Origin: a virus
Virus record (IMG/VR): IMGVR_UViG_3300028377_000004
Coordinates: 1 to 64,000 of that record
DNA: 64,000 nucleotides
Direction: 5' to 3' (one strand)
Each line of letters opens with the position of its first letter. Positions within the stretch are counted from its first letter, which is position 1. The notes under the pieces are model-generated. The model ran no database searches and was not told where the DNA came from. It saw only the letters and a program-made list of their open reading frames with translations. The position numbers and the translations under genes were made by a program. Below are positions 8,764-57,875 of the stretch, in pieces.

Positions 8764-8776
8764 GAGAAAATAAATT

Positions 8777-40746: not shown

Positions 40747-41886
40747 GTGAGGGAGATAATGGTGGCAGTATTAAAGATGTCTGAAATTGCGCAGTCAAAA
40801 GAACCACTAGTCATTATGATGATCGGCGCTTCGGGAAGTGGCAAGAGTACCCTTGCACATGAGTTGACTACTTTCCGAGATGATATGATTGTGGTATCCT
40901 CTGACGATACTCGTGAGCTTCTTACGGGAGATCCAGGCAATATGCCTATCTCTCGTTTGGCTTTTGAGCATATTCATACGATCTTGGAAACCCGATCAAG
41001 GCATGGAGTCAGCACGGTATTTGATGCAACTTCCCTGAAACGTGCCGACCGAATGGCTATTATGGCGAGTGCCCGGAAAAGTGATCGACATTTTAAGGTG
41101 GTGGGTGTTCTGGTAGAAACTCCCCTAGAGACGTGTAAAGCCCGCCAACACATGAGGGACCGTCAAGTACCCGAGTACGTGATTGAAAAACATCACAATA
41201 GCTATCAGGCTTCCAAGAAGAACGTTTTGGAGGAGAGGTTTGATGCTTTATTCATCTATGATACAGAGGAAAAAACCCTTACGGAATTAGAAACGTTTAC
41301 CCCTCCCGAGCCGTCCCTTGATATCGCCAATATTGTTACGGCGTTTAATAAGAAGACGATAGGCTCGAAAGTAACAGATCCGATTCCCTTTCTTGCCACT
41401 TTGAGTAAAGCCTTAAAAGCTACAGACTTTGGTAATCAGAGAGTGAAGGGGCAGGCATATATCCCCCTTAACGAAGCTGTTCCTTATGTATCGTGCGGGG
41501 TAGGAATTGGTACGGGGGATCCGTCAGACTATGTGATCAGAGAACACCGAGGAAATATGGGTTTGTATCTCAAAAGAGAACATGCTGCTCCAACCAAAAA
41601 CTTGGCAGTTGTTGTATATACCAGAGATGCCTATATGGCAGACCCTGATGTACAAGAGAATACGGAAGAATTCCAGAGAGCTACGGATTCGGATTCTACG
41701 CACTTCTTGGTAGCAGTCCTAGCAAGTGCTGGGGATCACAGCCCGCACACTCCAGGACGTTTTGTACGGAATCTGGCGGGAGGTAATCATGAAGCTATGT
41801 TCTGGACTGCCTCGGAGATTCGCAAGAAGGCCCAAGAAATTGTATCCTATTATGATGAAGAAAACTGGAAAGTGGTGGCAGACTGA
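40747..41886 (+). CDS. Polynucleotide 5'-kinase (Pnkp-type AAA_33) fused to an unknown domain
   Basis: IGASGSGKST, VSSDDTR, TVFDAT, P.ETC.AR...RDRQVPEYVI; true start may be ATG 40759 or 40777. Confidence 0.8.
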   Translation: MREIMVAVLKMSEIAQSKEPLVIMMIGASGSGKSTLAHELTTFRDDMIVVSSDDTRELLTGDPGNMPISRLAFEHIHTILETRSRHGVSTVFDATSLKRADRMAIMASARKSDRHFKVVGVLVETPLETCKARQHMRDRQVPEYVIEKHHNSYQASKKNVLEERFDALFIYDTEEKTLTELETFTPPEPSLDIANIVTAFNKKTIGSKVTDPIPFLATLSKALKATDFGNQRVKGQAYIPLNEAVPYVSCGVGIGTGDPSDYVIREHRGNMGLYLKREHAAPTKNLAVVVYTRDAYMADPDVQENTEEFQRATDSDSTHFLVAVLASAGDHSPHTPGRFVRNLAGGNHEAMFWTASEIRKKAQEIVSYYDEENWKVVAD

Positions 41887-42051
41887 GGAGACAATTAGAG
41901 GAAATGAATTCTTATTTGGACGACCATACTTGTTTTCGTATTTCAGGGGAAGAGGACTAAATCCTATCACGTTGCGGGAAGAATGATCCTATCTAATTTG
42001 TTTTTAGAACAGAAAATAGTAGAAGACAAGTAAAGAGATGAGATCATTATT

Positions 42052-42597
42052 ATGACCGGAATTATTTATATCATACAGGCTACAGGAACTGATCGCTATA
42101 AAGTAGGGTTTACTGCAAGAGACCCTGTAAAAAGATTAGCAGAGTTACAAATAGGAAGTCCTTTTCCACTGGAACTAAATCATTTCTTTTCAGGTTCGAT
42201 GCGAGAAGAAAAAGACTTGCACGAAGCCCTGAGCCCTTTTCATGTGGGCGGCGAATGGTTTGAAATCAAAATGGGTCCTCTTCTGGAAGCTATCTCCTAT
42301 ACTAAACAAAGCGTACTTGCTCCTTCTTCTAATTCAGACCTTGGGACTACTCAGGAAGATACCACATTAGAGAAGGGGGAGTATGGACCCATTAAGGTGG
42401 TGAAAGGTCCTCATAAGGGATGTGAGGGATTTTTTAGCGAAGATGTGGAGGAAGACCTGTGGAACGTGGAGGAAGGCTACCTCACCTTTCTAGAGGACTC
42501 TGAGAAAACGGGAGAAACCACTTTCCAAGTGACCAAAGTATATTTGGAAGGAGTCGGTTCTGTAATATTGCCGTATTCAGTTTTGGTTTCTATTTAA
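42052..42597 (+). CDS. T5orf172/MUG113 (GIY-YIG-like) domain protein
   Basis: IYII...YKVGFT.RDP.KRL.ELQ.GSP..L...E..LH.......GGEWF. Confidence 0.8.
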   Translation: MTGIIYIIQATGTDRYKVGFTARDPVKRLAELQIGSPFPLELNHFFSGSMREEKDLHEALSPFHVGGEWFEIKMGPLLEAISYTKQSVLAPSSNSDLGTTQEDTTLEKGEYGPIKVVKGPHKGCEGFFSEDVEEDLWNVEEGYLTFLEDSEKTGETTFQVTKVYLEGVGSVILPYSVLVSI

Positions 42598-42669
42598 AAA
42601 GACGGTTATTTTTTTATGGTATCTAGTCATAGACCATAAAAAGCCTTTCACTCTCCTTCTGAGGTCCTA

Positions 42670-43191
42670 ATGAATCTTAAAAAACAGTTAATCCAATTAG
42701 GTGAAGACCACAAAGATCTTAGACCTCATCTGAAAGTCCTCGTAGATTATCTACAAGACAAAGAAGGGGGGTCGTGGTATGATAAGGGGGAAACTAGCCC
42801 TAAAACTGAACCTTCTGAGGCTCCAAGCCCTACTCATAAAATACCTGAAGGTAAAGACCAGATATTTTCAGGTTCACCGGATTCTCTGAGAGCTTTTAAT
42901 ACCGTCATCCTTCCTCAGATCCAGGCAAAAGCTGATGCTTTTTCTTTTGAGGATATGACCAAAATGATGGAAGAGATAGATTCCCTTGGTACCTCAAAAA
43001 ATACGGAATTAGAAAATGCTCTTATTGTATGTAAACCTGTTTCAATGAACACGGGTAAATTTTATCAAGAGATTCAAAACGTGTTCAAGGATTGGATGCG
43101 TCCCAAGTTAAAAGGGGAAGGACAAGGACAAGAGGAGGGATCTACAGAAAAAGAAGATTCTAAAAAAGAATACAACTTTAATTTTCAGTAA
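42670..43191 (+). CDS. Hypothetical protein with shared N-terminal helix motif (possible internal virion protein)
   Basis: MNLKKQLIQLGEDHKDLRPHL resembles the N-terminus of 54568..55140; heads the second virion gene block. Confidence 0.6.
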   Translation: MNLKKQLIQLGEDHKDLRPHLKVLVDYLQDKEGGSWYDKGETSPKTEPSEAPSPTHKIPEGKDQIFSGSPDSLRAFNTVILPQIQAKADAFSFEDMTKMMEEIDSLGTSKNTELENALIVCKPVSMNTGKFYQEIQNVFKDWMRPKLKGEGQGQEEGSTEKEDSKKEYNFNFQ

Positions 43192-43197
43192 ATAAAA

Positions 43198-44019
43198 ATG
43201 GCTATTCTACCAAATTCATCGTTTGTGCGGGTTTTGCATCTGGGAAACAGTCAAGGGTCTATTTATCTTAATGATATTGATACCTATTTAAACCGATATC
43301 CAGAGCTAAAAATCCCTGTCTACGTTCCTTTCGAGAGGACAATAGACATTCCATTAGTTGATGAGGTCTTGATCTCTTATAATAGGGGATCGCTTCATAA
43401 ACACGCTCAAAACAATCTCATTGAAGTCTTCATTTTCTCTGAGAAATCCGTAGTCGAACTAATAAATGTCACTAATCATCAGTCAAAACTTGATAGTGAT
43501 ATCATTTTAGTCAATACCAGCCTTTCTGATGTTACCGTTACCCTACCAGACCTTAGTATACTTCCAGAAGGGCGAGAAATCTTCATTAAGAAGACCACTG
43601 ACGATGTTAATAACCTGATTATAGAAGCACAGGTACCCGATCAAATTGATAGAGACTCTTTGGAAGTAATTACCTCCGCACCTTTTGGTGCCTTCACTTT
43701 AAGAGCAGGCGCTGGAGGTTGGTGGATAGCCTCAGAGCATCCTTCGGGAACTGTATTAGATGATGATGGTGGTGGGGGTGGTGGAGATTTCGAGCCCGTA
43801 AAAATCTATGCGAACTTAGCTTCTAGAGACTCTACGGAACCTAGTTTTGTTTATGTAGGAAAAGTCGAAGCCGTAGGTACTTCTGAGGATAGTCCCTCTT
43901 GGCGGATTTATCGTCAAAACGTAGCAAATACAAATACGCCACAGGAATTTGCGGGTGGCACAGTCGAGTATATTCATAAATGGACAGAAAGAGAATCATT
44001 GACCTACGAGGAGATCTAA
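43198..44019 (+). CDS. Mosaic tail-associated protein
   Basis: VNTS..DVTVTLP...GREIFIKK..D..N tail-fibre module; Gly linker; C-terminal YVGK......SWRI...W.ERESLTY module. Confidence 0.6.
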   Translation: MAILPNSSFVRVLHLGNSQGSIYLNDIDTYLNRYPELKIPVYVPFERTIDIPLVDEVLISYNRGSLHKHAQNNLIEVFIFSEKSVVELINVTNHQSKLDSDIILVNTSLSDVTVTLPDLSILPEGREIFIKKTTDDVNNLIIEAQVPDQIDRDSLEVITSAPFGAFTLRAGAGGWWIASEHPSGTVLDDDGGGGGGDFEPVKIYANLASRDSTEPSFVYVGKVEAVGTSEDSPSWRIYRQNVANTNTPQEFAGGTVEYIHKWTERESLTYEEI

Positions 44020-44442
44020 ATGAGTGAGAAAATTATCAAAGTAGCGGGACTTTGGGAACGGGGTTGGTCAACACCCATCATGGAAGTAGACCTCTGGCAA
44101 TTCCCACTAAGAGACTTTGGAGTTCAAACATTGTATATGACTCCTATTTCTGGTATTGCATCGAACAAGGTTGAAGAAAGGTCTTCGCTTACTGAAATAT
44201 TGGAAGAGGCAGATCAGGAAGGACTTACCGTTGTTTTCGTGGACGAGAACGGAAGTTCCTCCCTAGAAGAATTTGAGCATCCTGACAAGGTACTTTACGT
44301 TTTTGGAAAAGCGGGAAGTGCTGCGACTATTCATGCTCGTTCCAAGGATCTCTCCATTAGCATTTCTACAGTAGCCAACAAAGGTCTTTTATGGCCGCAC
44401 CAAGCTGCTTCTATCGTCCTCTATGACCGACACCTGAAGTGA
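44020..44442 (+). CDS. SPOUT-fold (TrmH/TrmL-like) methyltransferase-like protein
   Basis: LEEFEHPDKVLYVFGK...SISI.T....LLWPHQAASIVLYDR resembles the SPOUT trefoil-knot signature. Confidence 0.5.
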   Translation: MSEKIIKVAGLWERGWSTPIMEVDLWQFPLRDFGVQTLYMTPISGIASNKVEERSSLTEILEEADQEGLTVVFVDENGSSSLEEFEHPDKVLYVFGKAGSAATIHARSKDLSISISTVANKGLLWPHQAASIVLYDRHLK

Positions 44443-44449
44443 GATTATT

Positions 44450-46051
44450 ATGGCTGTAACAATCACAGACAATCGCACCACTATTTCCGCTGCCAATGCC
44501 ACTACAGGTTGGACCAGCACGGCGGGTCATGATACTTTCACTGCGCAACCTTCTCCCGTTGAAGGTACTGCCTGCCTTGGTATGCAGGTATCTAATGCCC
44601 AAGAGGATGCGTATTTCACATTACCTGCTTCCGTAAATATGGGGGGCACCGGGACATTGGTCTATCAGTGGGTTTTTCCTCGTGGGGAAATGGCAACCAC
44701 TGCTAATGGGGGTATCCAACTCCAATTAGGAGACGGGACCAACCGTATAGGTTTTCACCTAGCGGGCGCTGACATCGCACCTTTTCGGCACGACCAAGGG
44801 CCAGTTGGTTGGCAGTGTATGGTTTTAGACACTGCAAATCTTCCTACGTCTTTCACGGTCTTATCAGGGTCAAGGGTGGGCCTTAACCTGTCTGCAATCA
44901 CACAGGTTGGAGTTGTCTTTACCACACTTGTTAAGTCTGTTGGTGGTGTGGAAAACTGTTTCTGGGATGTATCAAGACGAGGCACAGGGGGCTTGACTAT
45001 TACTGGAGGATCTGTTGGGGATCCAGGAAAGTTCTCAGAGATCGCAACCCTCGACCGGTCTACCGGAGCAGGACAAGGATACGGAATCATTAGACAGTTG
45101 GGTGCAGGTGTTTTTGGATTGCAAGGCCCTCTAACTTTTGGATCAGGTGCAACCGCTACTTATTTCTCAGACCAAAATGCTACCCTTGTTTTCGAAGATC
45201 GCAATTTCCTTGATGATAAATATACAGTTACAGTACAGGGGAGTGGAACTACTTTCCAATTGGGATTGCCTGCGGGAGCTACCGGGGGTTCTGATGGATG
45301 TACTTTTGTCACTCCCACAACCACTGCTTCTAGGTGGATAGCAACGGATACAGGAACTGCTAATCTCAACATTTATGGCTCTACCTTCACAGGATTTCGA
45401 GAGGGAATAGCTTTTTCTTCCGGAGCAAATGCAGTTGATCACGAGTTTTTCGGAAATACCGTCCGGCTATCTGGACAGGTAGACATGGGACGGGTGACTA
45501 CTCGAAAGAGCACTTTTACAGGATATTCGGGTGCGGACGGAGCCCTCCTCTGGAACGAAAATATTGATATTCAGGACTGCTCCTTTGAAGGTAATGCGGA
45601 TGCTACTAATAATCCAGCCGGTATTGAGCATCCCTCATCAGTAGGGACGCCCTATTCGTACCCAGACCTAACGTTCTCTTCTAATGATTTTGATATTTTC
45701 AACTCGTCAGGTTCTGCGATCACAGTACAGGCACAGGGAACGTCTAACCCTTCCACATCGAGGGGGTCGGCTGTTGCCATTGAAAATGTGGTTTCGCTCA
45801 CACTCACGGGATTGGAGACAGATTCTGAGGTCCGAATCTTTCGGGTTTCCGACAATTTGGAGCTAGGAGGTACCGAAAGCTCCACAGATACTTTTGTACT
45901 TTCCTACAACTATACGGGTGATACTGAAGTTTACATCGTAGTTCACCATCTCAATTTCAGATATCTTAGATTGGCAAATGTAACATTGACCTCTTCTAAC
46001 GCTGTTCTACCTATCCAACAACAGGTAGATCGGGTCTATAATAACCCATGA
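44450..46051 (+). CDS. Tail fibre/tailspike-like protein with beta-helix-like C-terminal half
   Basis: G/T/S-rich; repeated F.GN/TFTG strands; tail context. Confidence 0.55.
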   Translation: MAVTITDNRTTISAANATTGWTSTAGHDTFTAQPSPVEGTACLGMQVSNAQEDAYFTLPASVNMGGTGTLVYQWVFPRGEMATTANGGIQLQLGDGTNRIGFHLAGADIAPFRHDQGPVGWQCMVLDTANLPTSFTVLSGSRVGLNLSAITQVGVVFTTLVKSVGGVENCFWDVSRRGTGGLTITGGSVGDPGKFSEIATLDRSTGAGQGYGIIRQLGAGVFGLQGPLTFGSGATATYFSDQNATLVFEDRNFLDDKYTVTVQGSGTTFQLGLPAGATGGSDGCTFVTPTTTASRWIATDTGTANLNIYGSTFTGFREGIAFSSGANAVDHEFFGNTVRLSGQVDMGRVTTRKSTFTGYSGADGALLWNENIDIQDCSFEGNADATNNPAGIEHPSSVGTPYSYPDLTFSSNDFDIFNSSGSAITVQAQGTSNPSTSRGSAVAIENVVSLTLTGLETDSEVRIFRVSDNLELGGTESSTDTFVLSYNYTGDTEVYIVVHHLNFRYLRLANVTLTSSNAVLPIQQQVDRVYNNP

Positions 46052-46151
46052 TCCTCAATGATGGAATTCACTATTCTATTTATTAGCTAGAGAAGTAGAC
46101 TCTAGGTCCCTTTATCTTTTTTAATATACAAACCCTCTCGGAGAATTCAAA

Positions 46152-48554
46152 ATGGTCGTAATTGATCCAGACAACTTAGACCGATTTCAGGTCATTTTCG
46201 GAACAGAAGCGGAACGCATTTCTTTGCGTCCTGTTTCTCTTACTGTAACCACACAGTCCTCTACAGGCAGCACTACTGTATCTACCACTACGTTCACGGA
46301 CTTAAATGCTACCTTCGACACCGATGGGGTAGCAGTAGGAGACGTCATCTGTGCCCAGACGAGTTTAGACTCCGGCCACTATATCATCACGAGCGTAGAC
46401 TCTGAGACGGAGCTTACGGTGGACACAGACGAAACTTTCACTACCTTTGAGGGGTCTACTGACATTGTATATGATATTAGGGAGCCGGGAGCAGGTTCAA
46501 TCGAACCCGGTGTTACGTTGCAGGCACTCTACTCCTTTGGTAAAGAGGAATGGAGAACCGACGTTGAAAACTTCGGCGGCGATGACTTGATTCGTCATAC
46601 ATTTCCTTTTGAGGCGATTACGTCGGAGCAGTTTGAGATTGGTGGTGGTAATGCACACACGGATTGGACATGGCAGAACGACTTCACTAGAAAAGCAGTA
46701 CGAACGGGAGGTTGGGCCGATAACATTACTAATGGTACAACCGAAGAAGAATATGCTGGGATTATTACACTTGGTGCTCTGGACTCTGATACTCAGGTCT
46801 ATTTCCAGCAAGAAAATGTAGATGCGGTCCCTACGAACTTTGAGTTCTTAGGACCTGTTAATGAAGCTATTCCTGTTTTCGAGACGGGAAATGACCGCAG
46901 GGGATTCCTCAAGCTATTTGCCCGGAAAAAAGCGAGAACGTATGCTGGTTCTGAGATCAGTGACATTGGTGTTACGACGATCCAGACGATTGTTAACCGT
47001 TTCCCGCTGGCGCACGCACTTGATGCTGCTATCTCAGTAAGTGATGGTGCTATCCTAGGATCTTCACCTTATAGAAATCAGCAGACAGTGGTCCCCTCAG
47101 CTTCCGCAGTTTTGGCGAACGTAGATGGCTTGACAGGAACTGTGACGGCTTCGGGAGAAACTTTCTTAGCAGATGGGGTTGTTGAGGGGGATTCGGTTCA
47201 TGTACTGGCAGGAACGCATGAAGGTATCTTTACCATCATCTCTGTAGATTCGGAGACGGTCCTAACGGTAGACACACAAGAGGAAGGACCTTTCACTGCG
47301 GTATCACCTAGTGTAGATGTAACAAGTACCATCCGACACGCTGACATCTCCTCCGGTGTCGCCAGTGACTATACGGACGGTGTTACTTCCAATATTGATG
47401 ATGATACAGGAACATTTACTTCGACTACCGGAGGGTTTACTGCCTCGGGAGTGGCGGTAGGAGACCTTCTTATTATCAGTGAGACTGGAAACGTTAATGC
47501 AGGGGTTTACAAGGTCCTCAATGTGGTTTCAGACACCGAACTTACAGTTGACACAGGGGATCGACCTTTCGTTGGTGATACTGCTATGGATTTCAGGGTA
47601 GTGCTTCCCGGCATGTATCTGGAATTCAAAGAGGATTTCATTACTCTTGGTGCTACTGGAGACTTGACTTTCGATTCCGCTACCCGTACTATTGAAAGAG
47701 CTTCGGGGTCTTGGGTAACAGATGAGGTTAGCACAGGTACAATTCTCACGGTAACAGGATCTGCGTCTAATAATGACGTGTATACTGTCGAATCCGTTAC
47801 TGCCACCACAATAACGCTAGTTCCCAGTAACACACTAGTCGACGAAGGCCCTACCTCAGATCCTACGCTCACTGCTTTTGATGCATATAAGAGATCCATT
47901 GGTGGGACTACTTATGCGTATAGATGGAGATTAACAGGAAATAACGCGAGTGCTGCCAATTGTTATCAATTCATTCAGCACCAACTGAGACAGCCTTCCG
48001 ATATTGACTATTCGGACGTAGGACATAGGGGAGATGTTACAGATCTTCTGATGAATTATGCTGCTCCTACGGGAGTTGGACTGGATATGTTTATCCAAGA
48101 CCTCTCTTCTTCCGATATCAATAATATGACGTTTCAGGACGCTACTGAAACGAATCGTCAGTTCCCTTTCTTGGCTGCGGGCCAGCTCAACTTCAACGTC
48201 AACTTGGTCAATGATACCAACGCGAAATATTGGCTTTTCTTTTCCGATGATAGTGCTGGAGATAATGCTGGAAATAACTTTGGAACAGAAAATGCTATTA
48301 TTGTTGAAGATGCGGATGGCGTTCCGATCGCGGGACAGGTTGGGGGTGACGGAACCATCTCATTCACTTTCGACTATGATGGTAATACACAAAGAGGAGC
48401 GGGGTCAGCAGGTACTAATGCTCCAGTGACCCTGGTTGCCATTGGACTTACCACGGCTCAGTACGTTATTGCTAACGGTACGATTGCAAGATCCGTTGCT
48501 AACGTTATCTCTGCGGTCGCCGCCTTGGAGAGGAATTATAGCAATCCTGCATGA
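46152..48554 (+). CDS. Virion structural protein with four inserted ~50-aa beta repeats
   Basis: IDPDNL, GVTLQALYSF.KEEW, FPFEAIT.EQF, GIITLG core plus (T/G)F..DGV..GD.......G.Y.I.SVDSET.LTVDT repeats. Confidence 0.65.
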   Translation: MVVIDPDNLDRFQVIFGTEAERISLRPVSLTVTTQSSTGSTTVSTTTFTDLNATFDTDGVAVGDVICAQTSLDSGHYIITSVDSETELTVDTDETFTTFEGSTDIVYDIREPGAGSIEPGVTLQALYSFGKEEWRTDVENFGGDDLIRHTFPFEAITSEQFEIGGGNAHTDWTWQNDFTRKAVRTGGWADNITNGTTEEEYAGIITLGALDSDTQVYFQQENVDAVPTNFEFLGPVNEAIPVFETGNDRRGFLKLFARKKARTYAGSEISDIGVTTIQTIVNRFPLAHALDAAISVSDGAILGSSPYRNQQTVVPSASAVLANVDGLTGTVTASGETFLADGVVEGDSVHVLAGTHEGIFTIISVDSETVLTVDTQEEGPFTAVSPSVDVTSTIRHADISSGVASDYTDGVTSNIDDDTGTFTSTTGGFTASGVAVGDLLIISETGNVNAGVYKVLNVVSDTELTVDTGDRPFVGDTAMDFRVVLPGMYLEFKEDFITLGATGDLTFDSATRTIERASGSWVTDEVSTGTILTVTGSASNNDVYTVESVTATTITLVPSNTLVDEGPTSDPTLTAFDAYKRSIGGTTYAYRWRLTGNNASAANCYQFIQHQLRQPSDIDYSDVGHRGDVTDLLMNYAAPTGVGLDMFIQDLSSSDINNMTFQDATETNRQFPFLAAGQLNFNVNLVNDTNAKYWLFFSDDSAGDNAGNNFGTENAIIVEDADGVPIAGQVGGDGTISFTFDYDGNTQRGAGSAGTNAPVTLVAIGLTTAQYVIANGTIARSVANVISAVAALERNYSNPA

Positions 48555-48740
48555 TTTCAAGGTCTTATATATAAAGACGTCTTACTGTCTCAGGCACTTT
48601 TAAGCCTATGATCGAAGCTTGCTACTCCCACTTCAAGGTGGGAGTAGCAAGACAAGATAAGACGTATCCAGAACCGTCATCTCAATGATAGTTAATCATA
48701 AAACTTATACGCAGCCTCCAAGGTGCGTACCCCCTTAATA
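48555..48740. other. Highly structured 200-nt intergenic region (candidate ncRNA or cis-element)
   Basis: Perfect 14-bp stem at 48618-48651 with no U-tract, a possible long-range pairing with its flanks, and a further hairpin at about 48707-48729. Confidence 0.45.
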
Positions 48741-48755
48741 GAAGAGGAGTAAATA

Positions 48756-49283
48756 ATGTCAGAAGAAGAGAATAATGAAGAGTTTTTAGAGATCGAACTA
48801 GAATCCATTGAAGAAGAAGTAGAGGAAGAGGATTTTTATGTTTTGGAAGATGTAGTATCTGAGCCTCCTCCAGCGCCACCTGAAGAGGAAGAGCCCCCCA
48901 AGGAGGTAATACCCGTTGAGAATGGTACCCCCATTAAAAAACAAACGGGGAAAGTAGATCATCTCTTTACAGAAATTGAACCCTTGATTATGGCAGCGGG
49001 AGCTGGTAGAGTAACTCGTCGACAGATAAGATATCGCCTCTTCCGGATTAGGGAAGGGGGTCGTATCCGAGAGGCGTATGATCTAGGTCTAAAATCTTTT
49101 ATGGAAGCTCAATTCACGTCAGAGATGACGTGGGAGAATTTCACCTTTGAGTGGGATGTTGCTCCTAATAACCCCCTTAAAGTCATTCCTAAAGATATCA
49201 GTAATTACGAATGGTTAGACCTAGGAGGTAAGTTTGATGGTGCAGACAAGAAAGTCCCACCGGCTTTCTCTCAACAGAAGTAA
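48756..49283 (+). CDS. Hypothetical protein with a very acidic N-terminus
   Basis: GAGGAG SD; E-rich N-terminus; MTWENFTFEWDV motif. Confidence 0.65.
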   Translation: MSEEENNEEFLEIELESIEEEVEEEDFYVLEDVVSEPPPAPPEEEEPPKEVIPVENGTPIKKQTGKVDHLFTEIEPLIMAAGAGRVTRRQIRYRLFRIREGGRIREAYDLGLKSFMEAQFTSEMTWENFTFEWDVAPNNPLKVIPKDISNYEWLDLGGKFDGADKKVPPAFSQQK

Positions 49284-49327
49284 GGTAGGATACGCAGTAG
49301 TAAGTATATTTTTAAGGTTAAGGTCCT

Positions 49328-50935
49328 ATGGCAGAAATGAAGTTCATACGAGTACCTCCAGACTCTACAGGGAAGAGGGTCACGCACGGACTTACGATTC
49401 ACCTCCTATATAATGGGGGAACGCAGGATTTTGAGTTGGGAGATACTGTAATAGGCGAAAACTCTGGTGCCATCGGAGAAGTAGGACTTGTTCAGGAGGG
49501 AAGTACCACTGAACAAGGGGCACTTCATGTCATTATGGCTTTGGAAAGTCCTGACTCCTTTTCACAAAACGAAAATATAATAGTAAATGGAACTACTTAC
49601 GCTCAAGTAGCAAGTCAGATTCCAGTATACTCGCAGCATGTACAAATGGTTGGGGGCAATAACACCACGCACACAGTCGCCGTTGATGAGAAAGGCGCTA
49701 TGTTCACTAGGGCCGCGGAGGGTTCGCAGCAATTTGATGCTTTCGGCAAACTGGAGGTATCACAAAGAACGACCATTGGGGAATACACCTTCAATTATGA
49801 TCGCCAAGACGAGTATATAGAGTATGAAGAATTAGGATCTGGAGTGGTCACACACCAACCTGATTATTCAGGAATTTTGTTTACCTGCGGATCCAACACT
49901 GGTGACGTTGCTCGTGGTACCTCACACCTATACCATAAGTACCAACCCTCTATCGGACAGGTATTCCAAGCTACGGTATCTATGGGGGATGAGGGCAAGG
50001 ACAATTTAATAAGAAGATGGGGTTATTTTGATCAAAAAGATGGTATGTTTTTTGAATTAAATGGTTCTGACCTATCTGTGGTAATCAGGTCATCTGCTAC
50101 TGGAACAGTTGCGGAGACTAGGATTCTACAAAAAGATTGGAATGTAGATCGATTAAATGGGGAGGGGGGTACTTTCAACCTGAGTGGGGAAAACCTTGAT
50201 ATTACGAAAATCAATATATGGTGGATCGACTTTCAATGGTTGGGAGCGGGGAGAGTCCGTTTTGGTATTGTGATAGACGGAGTCCGAATCACAATACATT
50301 CCCAAACCGGAAACATATCTCACCTCCCCTACACGTCCACAGGGACTCTTCCAGTCCGTTTCTGTCAAGAAAACGTAGGTTCGGTAACTTCCTCTAGTCA
50401 GATGCGTGTGGTATGCTGTACGGTAGGTTGTGAGGGAGACTTCAAACCACAACATATAGGATTCTCCCCTCAATTTGACACCCCTCCTATAGCGGTAAAC
50501 TCCTTTACCGAAAAACCCTTATTTAGTGCTAGGTCCAAAGTGGAGTTCAAAGGGAAAGAAAATAGAGCAGTTATCTTGGCTCGAACGCTAACAGGTATTG
50601 TTACTGGGGCTCCTATCGCCATTCGTATCTATAAAAATGCAACACTTACTGGGGATCTATGGGTCTTAGATCCGGGACCCAGCAGTTCAGGGGAATTGGA
50701 CGGAAATGCCACCGCAGTAACGGGGGGGAGACTTCTTTGGAGTAAGATCCTCGCCCCCAACGAAAGTATAGAGCAAGATATCTCTTACCTGTTTAATTAT
50801 GAACAGGGGGAAACCATTAAAAGACATGCTAATATAGCAGAATACGATACCTACACACTAACTGCACGTCTGATTGATCCCGATGATCCTCCAGCAAAAG
50901 TTTCTATTACTTTGAACTGGCTTGAAATTCAATAA
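49328..50935 (+). CDS. Virion protein, tandem paralog 1 (DAFG/WN.D.L.G/WIDF.W.G.G.VRFG family)
   Basis: RVPPDSTGKR, DAFGKLEVSQ, RRWGYFD..DGMFFE, WWIDFQWLGAGRVRFG. Confidence 0.7.
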   Translation: MAEMKFIRVPPDSTGKRVTHGLTIHLLYNGGTQDFELGDTVIGENSGAIGEVGLVQEGSTTEQGALHVIMALESPDSFSQNENIIVNGTTYAQVASQIPVYSQHVQMVGGNNTTHTVAVDEKGAMFTRAAEGSQQFDAFGKLEVSQRTTIGEYTFNYDRQDEYIEYEELGSGVVTHQPDYSGILFTCGSNTGDVARGTSHLYHKYQPSIGQVFQATVSMGDEGKDNLIRRWGYFDQKDGMFFELNGSDLSVVIRSSATGTVAETRILQKDWNVDRLNGEGGTFNLSGENLDITKINIWWIDFQWLGAGRVRFGIVIDGVRITIHSQTGNISHLPYTSTGTLPVRFCQENVGSVTSSSQMRVVCCTVGCEGDFKPQHIGFSPQFDTPPIAVNSFTEKPLFSARSKVEFKGKENRAVILARTLTGIVTGAPIAIRIYKNATLTGDLWVLDPGPSSSGELDGNATAVTGGRLLWSKILAPNESIEQDISYLFNYEQGETIKRHANIAEYDTYTLTARLIDPDDPPAKVSITLNWLEIQ

Positions 50936-50949
50936 AATATCAGGTTATT

Positions 50950-52563
50950 ATGTCAAGCAAAAAATACGTTAGAGTACCCCCAGATTCTGCGGGGAAAAGA
51001 ATACAACACGATGTCACCCTATTGGTTGAGTACAGTTCGGGTACAACTGCCTTTAAAATAGGGGATAAAGTTGTAGGACAAAGTTCGCAAGTAAGAGGGG
51101 AAATCGGACGTGTGATAAACGGATCTACCACAGTAGAGGGATCCTTTTATTTAGTAATTGAGCTGGATAGTGATGAGAATCTTACTGTAGGAGAAACCCT
51201 TCTAGTAGATGGGGTTCCTTATGCTCAAGTCGCTAATAGCACCCCATTATATTCACAGAGAATACAGATAGTGGGGGGCACAAATACAACCAATGTCGTA
51301 AATATAGATGATAGAGGGGCTATCTACACCCGCAGTGCCGACGGATCTAACCTCTACGACGCTTTCGGGAAATTGGAAGTCTCACAGAATACCACTATAG
51401 GAGAGTATTCATTTCAGTATGACAAGTTACCCGAAGAGATCTATTATGAGACGGTCGGGAACGCCTCCATAGGGCATCAACCTAGGTTTTCGGGGATCTT
51501 GTTATCTTGTGATACTACAAGCGGGGATTCCGCAATTGGAACTACTCATTTATATCATAAATATCAAGCGTCGGTATCTCAGCATGTGGGAATGAGTGTG
51601 TCTATAGGAGATGCGGGGAAAGATAATGTAGTCAGAAGATGGGGATATTTTGACCAAGAAGATGGTATGTTTTTTGAAAGGGACGGACAGACCTTAAATG
51701 TGGTAATCAGGAGTTCTGCTACAGGTCAAATAGAAGAACTTAGGATTCCACAATCACAATGGAATGGGGATCGCCTAAACGGGGAGGGTGGTACTTTCAA
51801 CCTGAGTCGCTACGCACTAGATCCTACTACTCTATTTTTGTGGTGGATTGATTTCCATTGGTATGGAGCAGGCGTTGTTAGATTTGGTATCCAATTAAAT
51901 GGAAAGAGAATCGTGTGTCACCAAACCTCGTCGGAAGATCGGGGGGGACTTCCTTTTATTAGAAAAGCATCCTTACCTATTAGATTTGAACAATTTAACA
52001 CAGACACATCGATATCCATTAGTGAAATGCGAGTGGTGGAAGCTTCCGTAAATACAACGGGAAGATTCCTTCCAAAATATAAATCATTTGGTATTGAAGG
52101 CGAGATCCCCCCTCTTCCTATAAGTAGTAACTCATTTGTTCCGTTGTTTTCAGGTCGACTTAAACAAGAATTCAAAGGTTCAGATAACAGAACAGTGGCC
52201 TTACCTAGAGATATCTCAGCCTATGTCATGGGAAATGGTCCTATAGAAGTTCAAATCATAAAAAATGGAACATTAGCTGGGGATACTTGGACAATCGACG
52301 CAGGGGCAGAAAGCGCTGTAGAGATAGATGCTACTGCCTCTTCAATAACGGGCGGTAGGCTGGTCTGGAAAGACATTATAGGACCTAATACCAAAGAGAA
52401 AATGGATTTGACACCGGTTTTTAATTTTGAACAGGGAGATACGGTGAAAAGACACGCCAATATAGAGGACTACGACACTTTCACCCTACTGGCACGAATT
52501 GTTATCCCTGGTGGAGACCCTGTAAACGCATCTTTTGTGTTAACAGTGTCGGAGATACAATAA
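50950..52563 (+). CDS. Virion protein, tandem paralog 2
   Basis: Colinear full-length similarity to 49328..50935. Confidence 0.7.
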   Translation: MSSKKYVRVPPDSAGKRIQHDVTLLVEYSSGTTAFKIGDKVVGQSSQVRGEIGRVINGSTTVEGSFYLVIELDSDENLTVGETLLVDGVPYAQVANSTPLYSQRIQIVGGTNTTNVVNIDDRGAIYTRSADGSNLYDAFGKLEVSQNTTIGEYSFQYDKLPEEIYYETVGNASIGHQPRFSGILLSCDTTSGDSAIGTTHLYHKYQASVSQHVGMSVSIGDAGKDNVVRRWGYFDQEDGMFFERDGQTLNVVIRSSATGQIEELRIPQSQWNGDRLNGEGGTFNLSRYALDPTTLFLWWIDFHWYGAGVVRFGIQLNGKRIVCHQTSSEDRGGLPFIRKASLPIRFEQFNTDTSISISEMRVVEASVNTTGRFLPKYKSFGIEGEIPPLPISSNSFVPLFSGRLKQEFKGSDNRTVALPRDISAYVMGNGPIEVQIIKNGTLAGDTWTIDAGAESAVEIDATASSITGGRLVWKDIIGPNTKEKMDLTPVFNFEQGDTVKRHANIEDYDTFTLLARIVIPGGDPVNASFVLTVSEIQ

Positions 52564-53111
52564 TGATCGCTACCTTCTATGGTTTCTGGGACGAATGGGA
52601 GCTTTATCATAAAGTCACTTTTGATGGAGCTAATAAATTGATCCTTGTGAATAGGGGTGAAACTACTATTAACGTGGAGATAGATCTCTACTCAGACTGG
52701 AAAGAATGGTCTGCCATTAGAGACCATTCCAAATTTGAACAAGCAATGAGAAATGTGGGTGGTGACCCCCTTCCCGGCGATGACCAGTTGGGAGCTACTT
52801 TCTTCTTAACAAATGGATGGAGAATTAAAACATGGGAAGGAGACCACGAACTTTTTGTAACAGGAAACCTTTTCACTGAAGTCGGGGATCCTCCCTTTTT
52901 ACCAACACCCGGCCCTTATACCATATTGATTAATCAGAGAGTATCTAACCTTATTGATAAAGTTGGATTTCCGGGGAGCGTAGAAGAAATGGCGGATGCT
53001 GTATGGGATCGAATGGTATCGGAGCATACTGAAGAAGGAAGTTTTGGAGAGAAAATAGGTAGAAAACTTATTATGGTTCTCTTAGAAGACATGGGCGTAG
53101 AAGTAGACTGA
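52563..53111 (+). CDS. Conserved phage structural-type protein
   Basis: VTFDG.NKLI...DLYSDWKEW...GGDP.......FFL.NGWRI motif; virion block. Confidence 0.6.
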   Translation: MIATFYGFWDEWELYHKVTFDGANKLILVNRGETTINVEIDLYSDWKEWSAIRDHSKFEQAMRNVGGDPLPGDDQLGATFFLTNGWRIKTWEGDHELFVTGNLFTEVGDPPFLPTPGPYTILINQRVSNLIDKVGFPGSVEEMADAVWDRMVSEHTEEGSFGEKIGRKLIMVLLEDMGVEVD

Positions 53112-53228
53112 ACTCAATAAAAATCTGGAGGTTCTTTTAATAATGGAGCTAACCAGAGAAATACTAATGTCGTCGATCCTAGTTACGAAGGACCTCGGAA
53201 AATTTATAATTGTGAAGGTAAGTTAATA

Positions 53229-53367
53229 ATGACTAAAAAAACAAATTAAAGTCGTACTATCAGGATCCGGAACTCTTTATCCAATGCACGCAGGCGCTCT
53301 CCATTATCTATCAGATGCAGGTTATGATCTGGTTTCGGGATACCTAATTCAGGGAAGATTTTTATGA
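53229..53367 (+). pseudogene. Frameshifted, truncated patatin paralog
   Basis: ATG ACT + A7 run; after a one-base shift it reads QIKVVLSGSGTLYPMHAGALHYLSDAGY, matching the downstream patatin N-terminus; its stop overlaps the patatin ATG. Confidence 0.7.
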
Positions 53368-54149
53368 AAATAAAAGTAGTATTATCAGGGGCGGGGGTTC
53401 TATATCCACTCCATGCTGGTGCAATAAAGAGACTAGTAGACGAAGGTCATATCATTACTGATATTTGTGGTATTTCAGGCGGGGCTATTATAGCAGCAGC
53501 TATCGCATCTGGAATCCAAATAAAAGACCTTGAGGCTCTAATTTTAGACACAGTTCCTTCCGAAAACAAACTACTTGACTGGTCTTTGTTAGCGCCTTGG
53601 AAATGGGGTTTATATAAGGGAGATAAATTAGAAAAAGTATTTCAAGACCTATTTGTGAGTAAATTTAAGGACACTAAAATTTCTCTTTCTATTGGTGCTA
53701 CTAATCTTAATGCCAAATCTCACACGATTTTTTCTACGGAAAATACCCCAGAATTTTCCGTTGCAAAAGCAGTACGAGCATCTATTGCAATTCCCGGAGT
53801 TTTCCAACCTGTAAAAATAGGGGAGAGTTATTTGTGTGACGGTGGGGTATCAGCTAATTTCCCTTTGAATATTTATGGCACAGGGGAAAATGTTTTCGGA
53901 TTACGAATACGGTCGGGTGAGCAACTTAAAGAGAGAATTAAAATATCATCCCTTAAGGACTATGGAGCCGCAGTAATTAGTTCAATGATGGAGGCCATAA
54001 GTAAAGAGCACATAGAAGATGCAGTATTTGCTAGAACAATGATATTGACATCGGAAACCTCTTCTTTGAATTTATACTCATCATCAGAAATTATGGAATC
54101 TTTATTTCAAGAAGGATATCAACAGGCAGGAAAATGGCTAGAAAAATAA
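53364..54149 (+). CDS. Patatin-like phospholipase
   Basis: SGAG...HAGA oxyanion region, GISGG nucleophile elbow, DGG catalytic Asp. Confidence 0.9.
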   Translation: MKIKVVLSGAGVLYPLHAGAIKRLVDEGHIITDICGISGGAIIAAAIASGIQIKDLEALILDTVPSENKLLDWSLLAPWKWGLYKGDKLEKVFQDLFVSKFKDTKISLSIGATNLNAKSHTIFSTENTPEFSVAKAVRASIAIPGVFQPVKIGESYLCDGGVSANFPLNIYGTGENVFGLRIRSGEQLKERIKISSLKDYGAAVISSMMEAISKEHIEDAVFARTMILTSETSSLNLYSSSEIMESLFQEGYQQAGKWLEK

Positions 54150-54558
54150 AAAGCGGTATTTATCAGATTATAAACATCAAAAATGGAAAAAGATATTTTG
54201 GGGCCAGCAAGAGAGTTCATTCTAGAATCAAAAACCATAAAAATAAATTGAAAAAAGGAACACATTTTAATGTACATTTACAATCTGCATGGAATAATGA
54301 TGGATCCGAAAATTTTCAATTTTCAATAGTTGAATATTGTCCTGAAAATATTCGATTTATACGGGAAGAAATGTACCTAAAAACTTATTTAAACTGTAAC
54401 AGATGGTCAGAACTTTATAATTTTGAAAAATTTCCAACAAAAGGTCCAAGCTACAATATAAAGGGGGAAGATCATCATTGGTATGGGAAAAACACTCTCC
54501 CGAAACTCTTGAAAAAATGTCTATAGCTCAGTCCCTTCGTCCAATACCACTTCATTAG
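54134..54558 (+). CDS. GIY-YIG homing endonuclease with frameshifted NUMOD3 motif
   Basis: SGIYQIIN..NGKRY.GAS...R...H; frame-0 ORF ends at 54526; one extra A in the A5 run at about 54488 would restore YGKKHSPETLEKMS, ending at 54558. Confidence 0.75.
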
Positions 54559-54567
54559 GAGAACCCC

Positions 54568-55140
54568 GTGCAGTTAAAAGACCCGCTTATTAAACTAGGA
54601 AACACTCATCCTGAATTAAGAGATCATCTTCGACATATTTTAAGCTCTTTAGATGAGGGTAGAGATATCGCTGTAAAAGCCTATAACGAAATGTATTCTT
54701 TCTTTTACCCAGAATGGAGTCAGCTAGAAGGAAATAATAGGGGAATCATACAATGGAGACAGCAGGATCTGGAAAGGGTTGGAGCACCTGCTAGAGAATT
54801 GATGAGTTTTTACGAAGAATTACGATTCCTGATAAAAGAAGTGTCTAAGTCCGAGTCTGCCTATGACCAACATGATTTCGACTTAGCAGATATATCTAAA
54901 AATATGAAAGTTTTCCGTGATGCCAAAAGAAAAGTAGATAAATTTTACGATCAGAAAAAGAAACAAGCCCTGTCTCTCATTAGAGAAGCTGGCGGTACTT
55001 TGGAAATAAGAGACTTAATTATAAACAGATATCCAGGGCTACGCGATATAAAGAAAGCACTAGAAATGCTTACACATGAAGGAAAAGTTAAAAAAAGGGG
55101 GAGTACTACTAAACAGCAGACCCTTACTTATAGTTTGTAA
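54568..55140 (+). CDS. Hypothetical protein with shared N-terminal motif and C-terminal wHTH-like region
   Basis: GTG start with AGGAG SD; MQLKDPLIKLGNTHPELRDHL; ALSLIREAGG.L.IRDL...ALEML..EGKV. Confidence 0.65.
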   Translation: MQLKDPLIKLGNTHPELRDHLRHILSSLDEGRDIAVKAYNEMYSFFYPEWSQLEGNNRGIIQWRQQDLERVGAPARELMSFYEELRFLIKEVSKSESAYDQHDFDLADISKNMKVFRDAKRKVDKFYDQKKKQALSLIREAGGTLEIRDLIINRYPGLRDIKKALEMLTHEGKVKKRGSTTKQQTLTYSL

Positions 55141-55157
55141 CTCTAGGTAAAGAATTG

Positions 55158-55204
55158 AAATAAAAACCCTTTGATCCAAATAAGATCAAAGGGTTTTTAT
55201 TTTT
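55158..55204. terminator. Bidirectional intrinsic terminator
   Basis: 19-bp perfect inverted repeat AAATAAAAACCCTTTGATC / GATCAAAGGGTTTTTATTT between convergent genes. Confidence 0.9.
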
Positions 55205-55214
55205 AGAGAAGAAA

Positions 55215-55601
55215 CTAACTAGGAAAGATCTCATTCGTATCTAGGTCTATCCAATGAAATTCTCCACTCCCCCAAATCCCATCTATATGGTTAGGCACCT
55301 CTTCATCTATTTCTTCATCAAAATAAACATTCTCTACTTCGATCTGTAAGTAGTCGTCTAGCTTGTGGAGACGATCTGTGGAGTGGAAAAACCTATTCTG
55401 TCTGGCCCAATATAACCCGGGAGCTAGAGAATTAAAAAGAAAAACAACCCTCTCCTTGGTGAGATCTCCATCTTCCCAGTGATGCTTATTATTTTCCCAG
55501 GGATGTCTAGCACTTTCTGTATTACTCATAATTTCAAGAAATGCTAGGATCGTATAGTAGAAATCGTTATCATCGAATCTAATTCCCAGTCTTTTAATCA
55601 T
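55215..55601 (-). CDS. Hypothetical protein co-transcribed with the phosphatase-ligase
   Basis: 128 aa, AAGGA SD, 10 nt downstream of the ligase gene. Confidence 0.6.
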   Translation of the reverse strand: MIKRLGIRFDDNDFYYTILAFLEIMSNTESARHPWENNKHHWEDGDLTKERVVFLFNSLAPGLYWARQNRFFHSTDRLHKLDDYLQIEVENVYFDEEIDEEVPNHIDGIWGSGEFHWIDLDTNEIFPS

Positions 55602-55611
55602 TCCGGATCCT

Positions 55612-57738
55612 TTAATTCAGTTCAAGGTCCACTTCAAAACTCAGAGAGTCCAGAGAAATTTTCTCTTCTCCATCCTTCCATCTAGTTACAATAGCTTTGA
55701 AGCCAGTACAAGGTTCATGACTCCACATAACATCGTCAAGGGGTAGTTCACCATTTCGAGCGTAAGCCATTATGAAACCGAATAGAGTTTGGTCAAATTT
55801 TTCTCGGGACCACATGGCTAGGGTTTTGTAATACTCACCAGTTTGTAAATCTCCTTTATCGTATCGATCGTTAAAATCTTCGACAATAGCAGTTGCATTG
55901 TCTCGAATTTCCTTGACCCCTTTCATATACATCATGAACCTGTCAAAATGTTCCCGATAGAAGGATTCGACCTCTTCTTCAGTCAAAAGGTTCTTTTTCA
56001 ACTGCGCATTAAACGTGTCCCAATCCTGCATTTCAGGACGATTCCAGATCATTTCCACAACGCTTTTATAAGTACACTGAAATTTAAGGCGATGATATTT
56101 CAGGTACTCCATTGTTTTCACTTTAACTCTGTGAATGACCTTCCCATCCTGCTCAAAGCAAACGATAGCCCCCTCGGGAAGATCCTCACGACCATCAAGA
56201 GCATTACGGACTTCGGCAACTCCCTGATCCAACTTGTCAGTTTTCAGAAATATTTCGGAAGTATCCAAATCATGTTCATCCGCGAATTCCGAAACTCGCG
56301 AGGAAGACCAATAATCATATTCTTCAAGGTCAAAAACCGAAAGAAGAGTTAGAGACTGGAGATCCCCATAATCCGTAACAACTCGGGCTTCAGGATGAAT
56401 CAATTCAAACACCAGAGTTTTTCCTTTCACAAAAGAAGGGTCAATAATGTGAGGATATTTTTCCTTTGCAATCTCACGAGCCGCTTCCATATAAGGGAAA
56501 CTGGAATCATCAATGTATTCTTCATTCCCTTCCATAACCGAACGTGTTGTAAATACAACGTTGCCCTCATGTTCAAAGACCTGAATCATCGTACCATCCA
56601 TTTTCTCGACGAATACGATGTCTACCCCTCTTACATCCTCAAAACGCCGTGACACTTCGTCTGAGAACTCACGACACCCATGATTGTGCATCTTCACCAG
56701 TGGTAAAGATACCAAACGATAAGGGTCTTTAGTATAGACAATACCTTTGGAATATAGTTGATGTTCTGCTTCCGGTTCAAAAAGAGCTTTGGAAGCGTTG
56801 GCAATTATAAGAGGACCACACTGTCTCTTATTAAGAAGTTCATCAGTATCTACCAAGTACAAAACATCTTCTTCTTTTTCCTGTAATTTTTCCAGGAGAT
56901 AGGGAAGGGACATATCTGTAATAGGTTTTGGCTTTGTAGTTCTAAGTTTTGGAGTCTTGCCCGATCCTCCAATAGCCAAGTTTCGACCATCTTCTCTTTC
57001 TTGACGAGAAAGTACGGACACTAGTTCTCTCTCAGGATATCGGAGAGCAGTGAGCTTGTTACCACCAAAGCAACAGGTATCTACACACACCGCCTTAGGC
57101 GTCACATAAGGCTCTTCATGCGTAACGTGTCCCCATACCACAAAAGGAGTATCTTCTGTGGCTTTTTCGTTATAGGAAGGAACCCAATCCAACCTAACAG
57201 GAAAACCATTAGCATCACGACCTCCAGTGGTATGTCCGTAGAGGGCCGCTGATTTTATACGGCCTCTACCCGCGTCCTTGGGAGGTGGCGCAGCATGGCA
57301 TACTAGAAGTTTACCTGCATCAAAAGTGATCGAAAGAGGAAGATCCAGAAGCCATTTAGAATAGTCCTGTTTCTTCTCATCTTCTTCCCAATCTTTCAAC
57401 TCTTCTAGGGTAGACTCCAAACCGTGTGCTATCTTGATCGGATTTCCTTTCAAAGCACGGCCTAGTTTGTCATCGTGATTTCCACGAGACACAAAAGCAA
57501 GATCTTCTTCTACATGCTTTCTGACAAATTCAAGGGCTTCCCTGCTTTTAGGTCCCCGGTCTGTGATATCTCCCACAAAAGCAAGAAGACGCCCCTCTGG
57601 GTGCCTCCACAAGCCTTCGGAATCAGGTTCGTAACCTAAGACCCCAAGTAGTTCAAGAAGCTCATCAAAACAGCCGTGAACGTCTCCTACGACATCTACT
57701 TTGGTTACTTCTGGGTATTCATTTTGCAAGTGCGTCAT
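55612..57738 (-). CDS. RNA-repair fusion: Pnkp/PrpE-type metallophosphoesterase + T4 Rnl1-type RNA ligase
   Basis: GDVHG, GDITDRGP, GNHD, GH, DT...GNKLTALRYPE; ligase motifs EKMDGT, FELI.PE.RVV.DY, EGAIV, RVKVK. Confidence 0.85.
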   Translation of the reverse strand: MTHLQNEYPEVTKVDVVGDVHGCFDELLELLGVLGYEPDSEGLWRHPEGRLLAFVGDITDRGPKSREALEFVRKHVEEDLAFVSRGNHDDKLGRALKGNPIKIAHGLESTLEELKDWEEDEKKQDYSKWLLDLPLSITFDAGKLLVCHAAPPPKDAGRGRIKSAALYGHTTGGRDANGFPVRLDWVPSYNEKATEDTPFVVWGHVTHEEPYVTPKAVCVDTCCFGGNKLTALRYPERELVSVLSRQEREDGRNLAIGGSGKTPKLRTTKPKPITDMSLPYLLEKLQEKEEDVLYLVDTDELLNKRQCGPLIIANASKALFEPEAEHQLYSKGIVYTKDPYRLVSLPLVKMHNHGCREFSDEVSRRFEDVRGVDIVFVEKMDGTMIQVFEHEGNVVFTTRSVMEGNEEYIDDSSFPYMEAAREIAKEKYPHIIDPSFVKGKTLVFELIHPEARVVTDYGDLQSLTLLSVFDLEEYDYWSSSRVSEFADEHDLDTSEIFLKTDKLDQGVAEVRNALDGREDLPEGAIVCFEQDGKVIHRVKVKTMEYLKYHRLKFQCTYKSVVEMIWNRPEMQDWDTFNAQLKKNLLTEEEVESFYREHFDRFMMYMKGVKEIRDNATAIVEDFNDRYDKGDLQTGEYYKTLAMWSREKFDQTLFGFIMAYARNGELPLDDVMWSHEPCTGFKAIVTRWKDGEEKISLDSLSFEVDLELN

Positions 57739-57779: not shown

Positions 57780-57812
57780 CTCTATATACCCTGGTTATCA
57801 GAATATTACAAG
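57780..57812 (-). promoter_or_regulatory. Putative early promoter, copy 6
   Basis: Reverse strand reads CTTGTAA-TATTCTGATAA-CCAGGGTATATAGAG. Confidence 0.75.
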
Positions 57813-57850: not shown

Positions 57851-57875
57851 CTAAATATTCTAAAAGAATCCTATT

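Follow-up and report, generated by a model that had tools for sequence, protein, structure and literature searches.

Pnkp-type healing domains and an Rnl1-like ligase in fusion proteins of a large-phage fragment suggest a dispersed RNA break-repair toolkit

Experimental knowledge of phage RNA repair comes almost entirely from T4; predicted kinase, phosphatase and ligase sets in large phages are numerous. These sets combine Rnl1, Rnl2 or RtcB ligases with polynucleotide kinases, with 2H, HAD, calcineurin-like and HD phosphoesterases and with KptA (PMC7824862, PMC9503650). In bacteria, Pnkp of C. thermocellum (CthPnkp) heals tRNA halves through a 2'-phosphate intermediate, and T4 Rnl1 then seals them in vitro without Hen1 (PMC1920235). 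Here we analyse a window of 64 kb, the first part of a linear 127,574-bp virus record of IMG/VR (IMGVR_UViG_3300028377_000004), in which two genes lying 13.7 kb apart on opposite strands, P0001 and P0002, encode fusion proteins with Pnkp-type healing domains and a T4-Rnl1-like ligase domain. The CheckV estimate of completeness is ~28%, and the parent genome is suggested to be that of a jumbo phage of ~450 kb. We consider it likely that the window holds most of a phage toolkit for the repair of breaks in RNA, probably tRNA, whose parts are scattered and tied together by a shared promoter-like motif. This interpretation is built on domain homologies, intact catalytic residues, the shared motif and the conserved clustering and fusion of the same modules in relatives; from these we infer the substrates, the order of steps, the timing of expression and an anti-defence purpose.

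A first-pass annotation of this DNA had placed the 5'-kinase module of bacterial Pnkp in P0001, fused to an unknown domain, and both parts of that description are borne out. Residues 21–176 match the kinase domain of CthPnkp (PDB 4gp7, E 1.7e-19) and positions 9–160 of the Pnkp model TIGR04075 (94.7 bits), with a further match to AAA_33 (E 2.4e-24), and the Walker A lysine K33 together with D53, R56, D93 and R137/R139 aligns with CthPnkp kinase residues. The C-terminal domain (CTD, residues ~190–379) has no match among Pfam, PHROG or NCBIfam models. It shows neither the DxDxT motif nor a match to the HAD domain of T4-type Pnkp. Homologues align to P0001 from position 40747 and the public gene call begins at the ATG at 40759 (375 aa, ribosome-binding site GAGGGAG), so that the start of the gene is one of these two.

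P0002 carries two further modules on one polypeptide, the Pnkp-type metallophosphoesterase and KxDG Rnl1-like ligase that had been read from the letters of the other strand about 14 kb away. Residues 9–243 align with the phosphatase domain of CthPnkp (PDB 4j6o, E 1.3e-48) and with TIGR04075 positions 178–415; the match that scores 216.6 bits joins residues 13–246 to positions 181–415. The P0001 kinase and the P0002 phosphatase map to consecutive parts of that model. All phosphatase motifs are intact, namely GDVHG (D19, H21), GDxxDRG (D57, R61), GNHD (N87, H88), H148, H204 and D220, and across homologues the catalytic residues do not vary. Among the retained residues is the histidine whose mutation turns CthPnkp into an enzyme producing 2'-phosphate, and the product of the P0002 phosphatase should thus be a 2'-OH,3'-OH end.

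Assignment of the P0002 ligase domain, which follows after a short linker, draws on profile and structural evidence. Residues ~328–665 match phrog_562, the T4 Rnl1 family, at E 4e-27 over profile positions 55–352 of 377, with K379 of EKMDGT as the motif I lysine. In Foldseek searches with an AlphaFold2 model of high confidence (pLDDT 90), the top three matches were the T4 Rnl1 structures 2c5u, 5tt6 and 9do4 (E 1e-14, full length, ~440 aligned columns), followed by Rnl3 enzymes and fungal Trl1 ligase domains. Alignment with T4 RnlA by hhalign (E 1.1e-5) pairs K379, E445, E522/G523 and K539/K541 with K99, E159, E227/G228 and K240/K242, and 17 homologues show no variation at K379-x-D381-G382, E445, E522-G523 and K539/K541. 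The Rnl1-specific T4 residues R54, K75 and F77 are paired with P0002 K331, K349 and H351, at an hhalign probability of only 82%; the positions are conserved and two of the residues differ. In Pfam, P0002 matches only PF09414 (26–28 bits) and not RNA_lig_T4_1 (PF09511), which is matched by four of eight relatives of the ligase domain (best E 1.3e-10). Since the sequence profile of the domain finds no match among PDB sequences even at E 10, its assignment to Rnl1 rests on PHROG, hhalign and fold. Across the whole record no match to TIGR04075 extends past position 415, and PF16542, a domain of canonical Pnkp proteins, is missing from the P0002 family; the ligase is therefore not of the Hen1-dependent Pnkp type. 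No second PF09414 ligase was found in the record. These homologies place the domain in the Rnl1 ligase family as a divergent member with predicted sealing activity. Outside phages, members of this ligase clade, with 36–44% identity and the ligase domain alone, are common in genomes of Gemmataceae and other Planctomycetota (L015–L052), where they have no gene for a Pnkp-type kinase or phosphatase within 10 kb.

Both genes stand downstream of copies of a rigid 29-nt motif, TGTAAW-N10-CCAGGGTATATAG, at the copies (5 and 6) to which the first-pass annotation had pointed. The motif occurs six times in the window, where 100 shuffles gave an expectation of 0.00, and ten times in the record, and at least three of the ten copies precede genes for RNA-end processing: the P0001 unit, P0002 and a cassette with a Tpt1 homologue. 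Copy 5 is followed by ORF199 and then by P0001, and no terminator was found in between; in the relative L061 the ORF199 homologue (43% identity), which contains DUF6011, likewise precedes the kinase gene. On the other strand, terminators flank motif copy 6, P0002 and ORF128, which hence form a self-contained cassette. A scan for the sigma-70 consensus did not call the motif. Co-regulation of P0001 and P0002 by this putative promoter-like motif is supported.

The surroundings of the P0002 cassette differ from those in the syntenic relative L003. ORF128 has no family match and is absent from L003, as are a GIY-YIG homing-endonuclease-like ORF at 54134–54526 and the ORF at 54568–55140, both of which lie beyond the 3' end of P0002; their absence there suggests that the GIY-YIG ORF and its two neighbours (54134–55601) are a mobile insertion. 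Directly upstream of P0002, beyond the strong terminator, the gene at 57876–60026 (-) encodes a protein of 716 aa that contains HExxH and matches LPD1 weakly; in L003 it is not conserved at this position.

Homologous loci provide comparative evidence. Among 50,697 deposited phage records no close relative was found: a megablast search with P0002 DNA gave no match, and tblastn gave partial, distant matches covering at most 41% of P0001 or P0002 at <40% identity. In metagenomic contigs, kinase, CTD, phosphatase and ligase occur as four separate genes on the same strand within ~7 kb in three phage lineages (L060/L088, L061/L087 and L089/L090). The phosphatase–ligase fusion of P0002 recurs in at least ten metagenomic proteins on contigs of up to 456 kb, another being 318 kb long, and in one related fragment (G001) it co-occurs with a stand-alone kinase gene 26 kb away. 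Finally, kinase, phosphatase and ligase are joined in a single polypeptide of 915–955 aa in P0015/P0019 and in three loci of Myxococcota metagenome-assembled genomes (L009, L012 and L013), their phosphatase and ligase parts being 34–39% identical to P0002. No Hen1 was found on the contigs of these fused Myxococcota homologues, where the neighbours are ordinary cellular genes. The relatives thus display every permutation, from four separate genes through two fusions to one triple fusion. The word ‘split’, which the first-pass annotation had used, presupposes a direction; the state it describes is one of several permutations, and no direction of change is implied.

Two further features of these loci were noted. 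In the middle of the four-gene clusters a gene for a type IB topoisomerase (Topoisom_I, E 1e-31) runs on the opposite strand (L061:11502–12509(-), L060:3719–4723(-), L089:9051–10079(-)), and no homologue of it was found in the source record. In two of three Myxococcota-type loci a Ser/Thr protein kinase gene precedes the triple-fusion gene (L009:2352–4220(+), L012:1169–2809(+)), and in L009 the two genes overlap by 4 nt.

The CTD belongs to a sizeable family, comprising 526 metagenomic clusters at 50% identity, nearly all of them stand-alone proteins of 185–250 aa; 37 members were compared with Pfam, and none matched a model. Invariant residues lie in an RFVRNLAGGN motif and in a C-terminal VAD motif. 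Its AlphaFold2 model is of high confidence (pLDDT 93), and the sole strong structural match is PDB 2pd0/4fbd, which are uncharacterised apicomplexan proteins (VIA Z 10.8, 176 residues). Searches for the domain in the ESM Atlas and among BFVD viral structures yielded nothing usable, and similarities to RelE/ParE-like folds were weak (Z 4–4.7), below the trusted level, and were set aside. Fusion of the CTD to the kinase is common to four proteins; other longer proteins with the domain contain no Pfam domains and hence give no further clue from fusion. In L064, L066 and L070 the CTD adjoins ApaH/PrpE-like metallophosphatases. The G012 copy comes after the gene of an HD-domain protein, and genes for Tpt1 and a methyltransferase lie at a distance of 3.6 kb. 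We regard the CTD as a conserved fourth module of the repair system and no incidental appendage, probably an accessory of RNA-end or nucleotide-end chemistry.

Genes close to stand-alone CTD genes (L061:10581–11117(+), L089:8556–9050(+) and L063:4271–4963(+) and 8504–9037(+)) gave mostly sub-threshold matches to SAM methyltransferases and to DSP or ‘Swiss-army-knife’ phosphatases, with one clear HD-domain match. It is possible that these are further RNA-end enzymes; the methyltransferase-like (L061) and DSP/‘Swiss-army-knife’-phosphatase-like (L089) neighbours fell below cut-offs and were not counted as evidence.

The set is also larger than the two genes of the first-pass annotation, since the record encodes a 2H enzyme and a Tpt1/KptA homologue. 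The 2H ORF matches PF13563 above cut-off (38 bits, E 1.3e-10), has an RNA 2',3'-cyclic phosphodiesterase (5h7e, E 1.6e-8) as its best PDB match and contains both HxT motifs (HVT and HMT); in G011 and G001, 2H homologues lie ~2 kb from the kinase gene. Counting from a motif copy with one mismatch (104281–104309, -), the Tpt1 homologue is the third small ORF, and homologues of Tpt1/KptA are present in G010 and G011 as well. RlaP and Macro domains were searched for in the record, and neither was found.

Taken together, these enzymes can be arranged in a candidate pathway. The RNA ends to be repaired would carry a 2',3'-cyclic phosphate and a 5'-OH, of which the latter would be phosphorylated by the kinase domain of P0001. 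The P0002 metallophosphatase would open and remove the cyclic phosphate to leave 2'-OH,3'-OH or, alternatively, the 2H enzyme would open it to a 2'-phosphate. The ends would then be sealed by the P0002 ligase domain after its self-adenylylation on K379, and the Tpt1/KptA homologue may strip a 2'-phosphate left at the junction. Fusion of phosphatase and ligase would couple the healing of the 3' end to sealing.

In the first-pass annotation this arrangement had been called probably independent of Hen1. The absence of Hen1 from the window that it reported holds, and extends to the record as a whole (TIGR04074, no match in 127.6 kb), although that record covers only ~28% of the genome. Hen1 independence is nevertheless plausible, because the ligase is of a non-Pnkp type, because the contigs of the fused homologues carry no Hen1 and because CthPnkp with T4 Rnl1 offers a precedent. 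The coordinates of the features are collected in Table 1.

Table 1. Features of the predicted repair toolkit and associated elements, in positions of the record (the window is its first 64 kb)
Feature	Position	Strand	Description
P0001	40747–41886	+	Pnkp-type kinase fused to a ~200-residue domain without Pfam family
P0001 N-terminal domain (residues 1–180)	40747–41286	+	Pnkp-type polynucleotide 5'-OH kinase
P0001 CTD (residues ~181–379)	41287–41886	+	Uncharacterised conserved domain, 2pd0-like fold
P0002	55612–57738	-	Pnkp-type binuclear metallophosphatase fused to T4-Rnl1-like ligase
P0002 N-terminal domain (residues 1–250)	56989–57738	-	Pnkp/PrpE-type binuclear metallophosphoesterase
P0002 C-terminal domain (residues ~270–708)	55612–56931	-	T4-Rnl1-like ATP-dependent RNA ligase (predicted)
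ORF199	40059–40658	+	First gene of the copy-5 unit, between motif and P0001
ORF128	55215–55601	-	Between P0002 and terminator, apparently co-transcribed downstream of P0002
Motif copy 5	39990–40018	+	Exact match, TGTAAT-N10-CCAGGGTATATAG
Motif copy 6	57782–57810	-	Exact match, directly upstream of P0002
Motif copy in window	20092–20120	-	
Motif copy in window	20164–20192	+	
Motif copy in window	34168–34196	+	
Motif copy in window	38986–39014	+	
Motif copy elsewhere in record	102367	-	
Motif copy elsewhere in record	104281	-	
Motif copy elsewhere in record	116705	-	
Motif copy elsewhere in record	127157	-	
Terminator	57816–57852		17-pair stem; ends the operon upstream of P0002, before motif copy 6
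Terminator-like hairpin	55158–55202	-	20-pair stem and T-run; closes the P0002 cassette
2H RNA 2',3'-cyclic phosphodiesterase	37641–38153	+	LigT-like, 170 aa; 2.6 kb upstream of P0001
Tpt1/KptA RNA 2'-phosphotransferase homologue	102887–103459	-	PF01885 79.6 bits; PDB 6ede E 1e-21
tRNA gene with 52-nt anticodon-loop insert	122061–122186	-	ARAGORN intron option; RF00005 55.7 bits

Several observations weigh against the break-repair reading. The P0002 phosphatase scores 196.4 bits on the model of the Ap4A hydrolase PrpE (NF010148), near its 217 bits on Pnkp; this is short of the PrpE equivalog cut-off of 340 bits, and the ApaH models, at 47–67 bits, also stay below theirs. In the Tpt1 homologue RVE replaces the HGT of CthTpt1; since HGT is a conserved Tpt1 motif, the activity of the homologue is uncertain. 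With only ~28% of the genome in the record, Hen1 or a canonical Pnkp could be encoded in the remainder, and no host ribonuclease target is known. The clusters in L060, L061 and L089 belong to syntenic relatives of the source phage with ~40–58% identity, and the clustering may in part reflect common descent and not be fully independent. Finally, the CTD is present without a P0002-like gene in the near-complete jumbo phages G013 (91%) and G014 (100%).

The record also contains a tRNA gene with an insert in the anticodon loop, and the strongest competing explanation starts from it: instead of, or besides, repairing damage inflicted by the host, the enzymes would splice the phage's own intron-bearing tRNA by a route of the fungal and plant type, in which the 2H enzyme would produce a 2'-phosphate, the kinase a 5'-phosphate, the Rnl1-family ligase would seal and Tpt1 would remove the junction 2'-phosphate. 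This tRNA gene, the only one in the 127.6-kb record, is found only with the ARAGORN intron option, and its 52-nt insert contains a T-arm-like GGTTCGAATCC element. Self-splicing group I introns are far longer than 52 nt, so that removal of the insert would need protein enzymes including a ligase, and all four activities of Trl1 plus Tpt1 are encoded in the record; Trl1 ligase domains are, moreover, among the best structural matches of the P0002 ligase and reach the highest TM-scores (0.47–0.50). We nevertheless think tRNA splicing unlikely. The tRNA-splicing endonuclease (PF01974) was not found in the record, excision by enzymes of the RNase P or RNase Z type would leave 3'-OH/5'-PO4 ends that need no healing, and the P0002 phosphatase keeps the histidine whose loss CthPnkp needs to make a 2'-phosphate product. 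The same ligase clade is also found in Gemmataceae and Myxococcota genomes, in which no such intron is known. Four related fragments (G001, G010, G011 and G002, 17–25% complete) yielded no tRNA and are hence uninformative on the co-occurrence of ligase and intron.

Between the break-repair toolkit and this alternative stands a combined and more far-reaching proposal, which we offer tentatively and hold to be improbable. The CTD would contribute a new enzymatic or substrate-handling function to phage RNA repair, and the 2H enzyme, kinase, Rnl1-family ligase and Tpt1 would make up a phage-encoded 2'-phosphate pathway like that of eukaryotes, by which the intron-bearing tRNA of the phage would be spliced as well. 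The CTD could, for example, carry out an end-modifying, ‘immunising’ step analogous to that of Hen1, or process a nucleotide by-product.

It is far less probable still that the proteins do not share a pathway at all, the phosphatase being a PrpE/ApaH-type hydrolase of dinucleoside polyphosphates or Np4 caps, the kinase–CTD protein acting on a nucleotide, a small molecule or DNA ends, and the Rnl1-like domain having a non-ligase role such as the tail-fibre attachment that T4 gp63 also performs. The PrpE model aligns end to end with the P0002 phosphatase (196 bits), the ApaH-like neighbours of the CTD in L064, L066 and L070 have diadenosine tetraphosphatases as their best PDB matches, the P0001 kinase has weak matches to the Zeta-toxin and APS-kinase families, the annotation of T4 RnlA describes a catalyst of tail-fibre attachment, and a purine-nucleoside-binding cleft has been predicted for 2pd0 (PMC3892921). 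Set against these points, kinase and phosphatase are each closest to Pnkp and not to small-molecule enzymes, the phosphatase shares its polypeptide with a ligase in which all adenylyltransferase motifs are invariant, a kinase–phosphatase–ligase triple fusion exists in bacteria, the four modules cluster in three phage lineages, and 2H and Tpt1 genes lie in the same record.

If the break-repair toolkit is the correct reading, its natural fusions are informative beyond this phage. The two phage fusions and the bacterial triple fusion act as Rosetta stones, indicating modules that work together without Hen1. A sizeable CTD family becomes linked, by fusion and neighbourhood, to RNA-end chemistry and so offers a concrete target for biochemistry. 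With a full heal-and-seal set, Tpt1 and a short-insert tRNA on one contig, protein-dependent tRNA splicing in phages is directly testable. Of the other genes between P0001 and P0002, two (49328–50935 and 50950–52563, +) are tandem paralogues of the virion structural family phrog_1645, each at E ~1e-70.

The locus can now be placed among known systems. T4 counters PrrC with Pnkp (PseT) and Rnl1 (RnlA/gp63), and the source phage resembles it in drawing a P-loop 5'-kinase, a 3'-end phosphatase and an Rnl1-family ligase from separate genes. The 3' phosphatase here, however, is a binuclear metallophosphoesterase, whereas that of T4 Pnkp is a HAD enzyme (DxDxT); it is fused to the ligase and not, as in T4, to the kinase, which here carries an extra domain, and the P0002 ligase is only ~17–23% identical to T4 RnlA. 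The bacterial Pnkp–Hen1 system of C. thermocellum includes the closest solved relatives of the source-phage kinase and phosphatase (4gp7 and 4j6o). Unlike bacterial Pnkp, the phage has no Pnkp-type ligase domain, distributes its modules over two polypeptides and scores 95 and 217 bits against the 750-bit cut-off of TIGR04075. Because it lacks both that ligase module and the single-polypeptide layout, the source-phage system is, by its domain content, not a member of the Pnkp–Hen1 family.

Fungal and plant Trl1, a fusion of ligase, kinase and 2H cyclic phosphodiesterase, together with Tpt1 comprises the same four activities that are encoded in the record, which holds an intron-bearing tRNA too; the likeness is one of presence only. 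In the phage these activities reside on separate proteins, an extra metallophosphatase is fused to the ligase, and the Tpt1 homologue lacks HGT. The fused kinase–metallophosphatase–Rnl1-like proteins (P0015/P0019, L009/L012/L013 and phage proteins of the phrog_8238 type, such as P0086) possess three homologous catalytic modules, but there all three reside in one polypeptide that has no CTD and cellular neighbours.

Closest in logic are the split cassettes of kinase, calcineurin-like phosphoesterase and Rnl1 predicted in phages, sometimes with KptA (PMC7824862, PMC9503650). The heal-and-seal hybrid put forward in the first-pass annotation stands as a combination of Pnkp-type healing modules with an Rnl1-type ligase, but the combination is no novel hybrid, as such phage sets had already been described, and ‘novel two-gene architecture’ claimed too much. 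The genes of those cassettes are adjacent, whereas in the source phage they are dispersed over >60 kb and the CTD takes part, and the fusions of the source phage were not seen in the 50,697 deposited phage records. Novelty lies in the pair of fusions, phosphatase with ligase and kinase with CTD, and in the link of the CTD to RNA repair that results from them.

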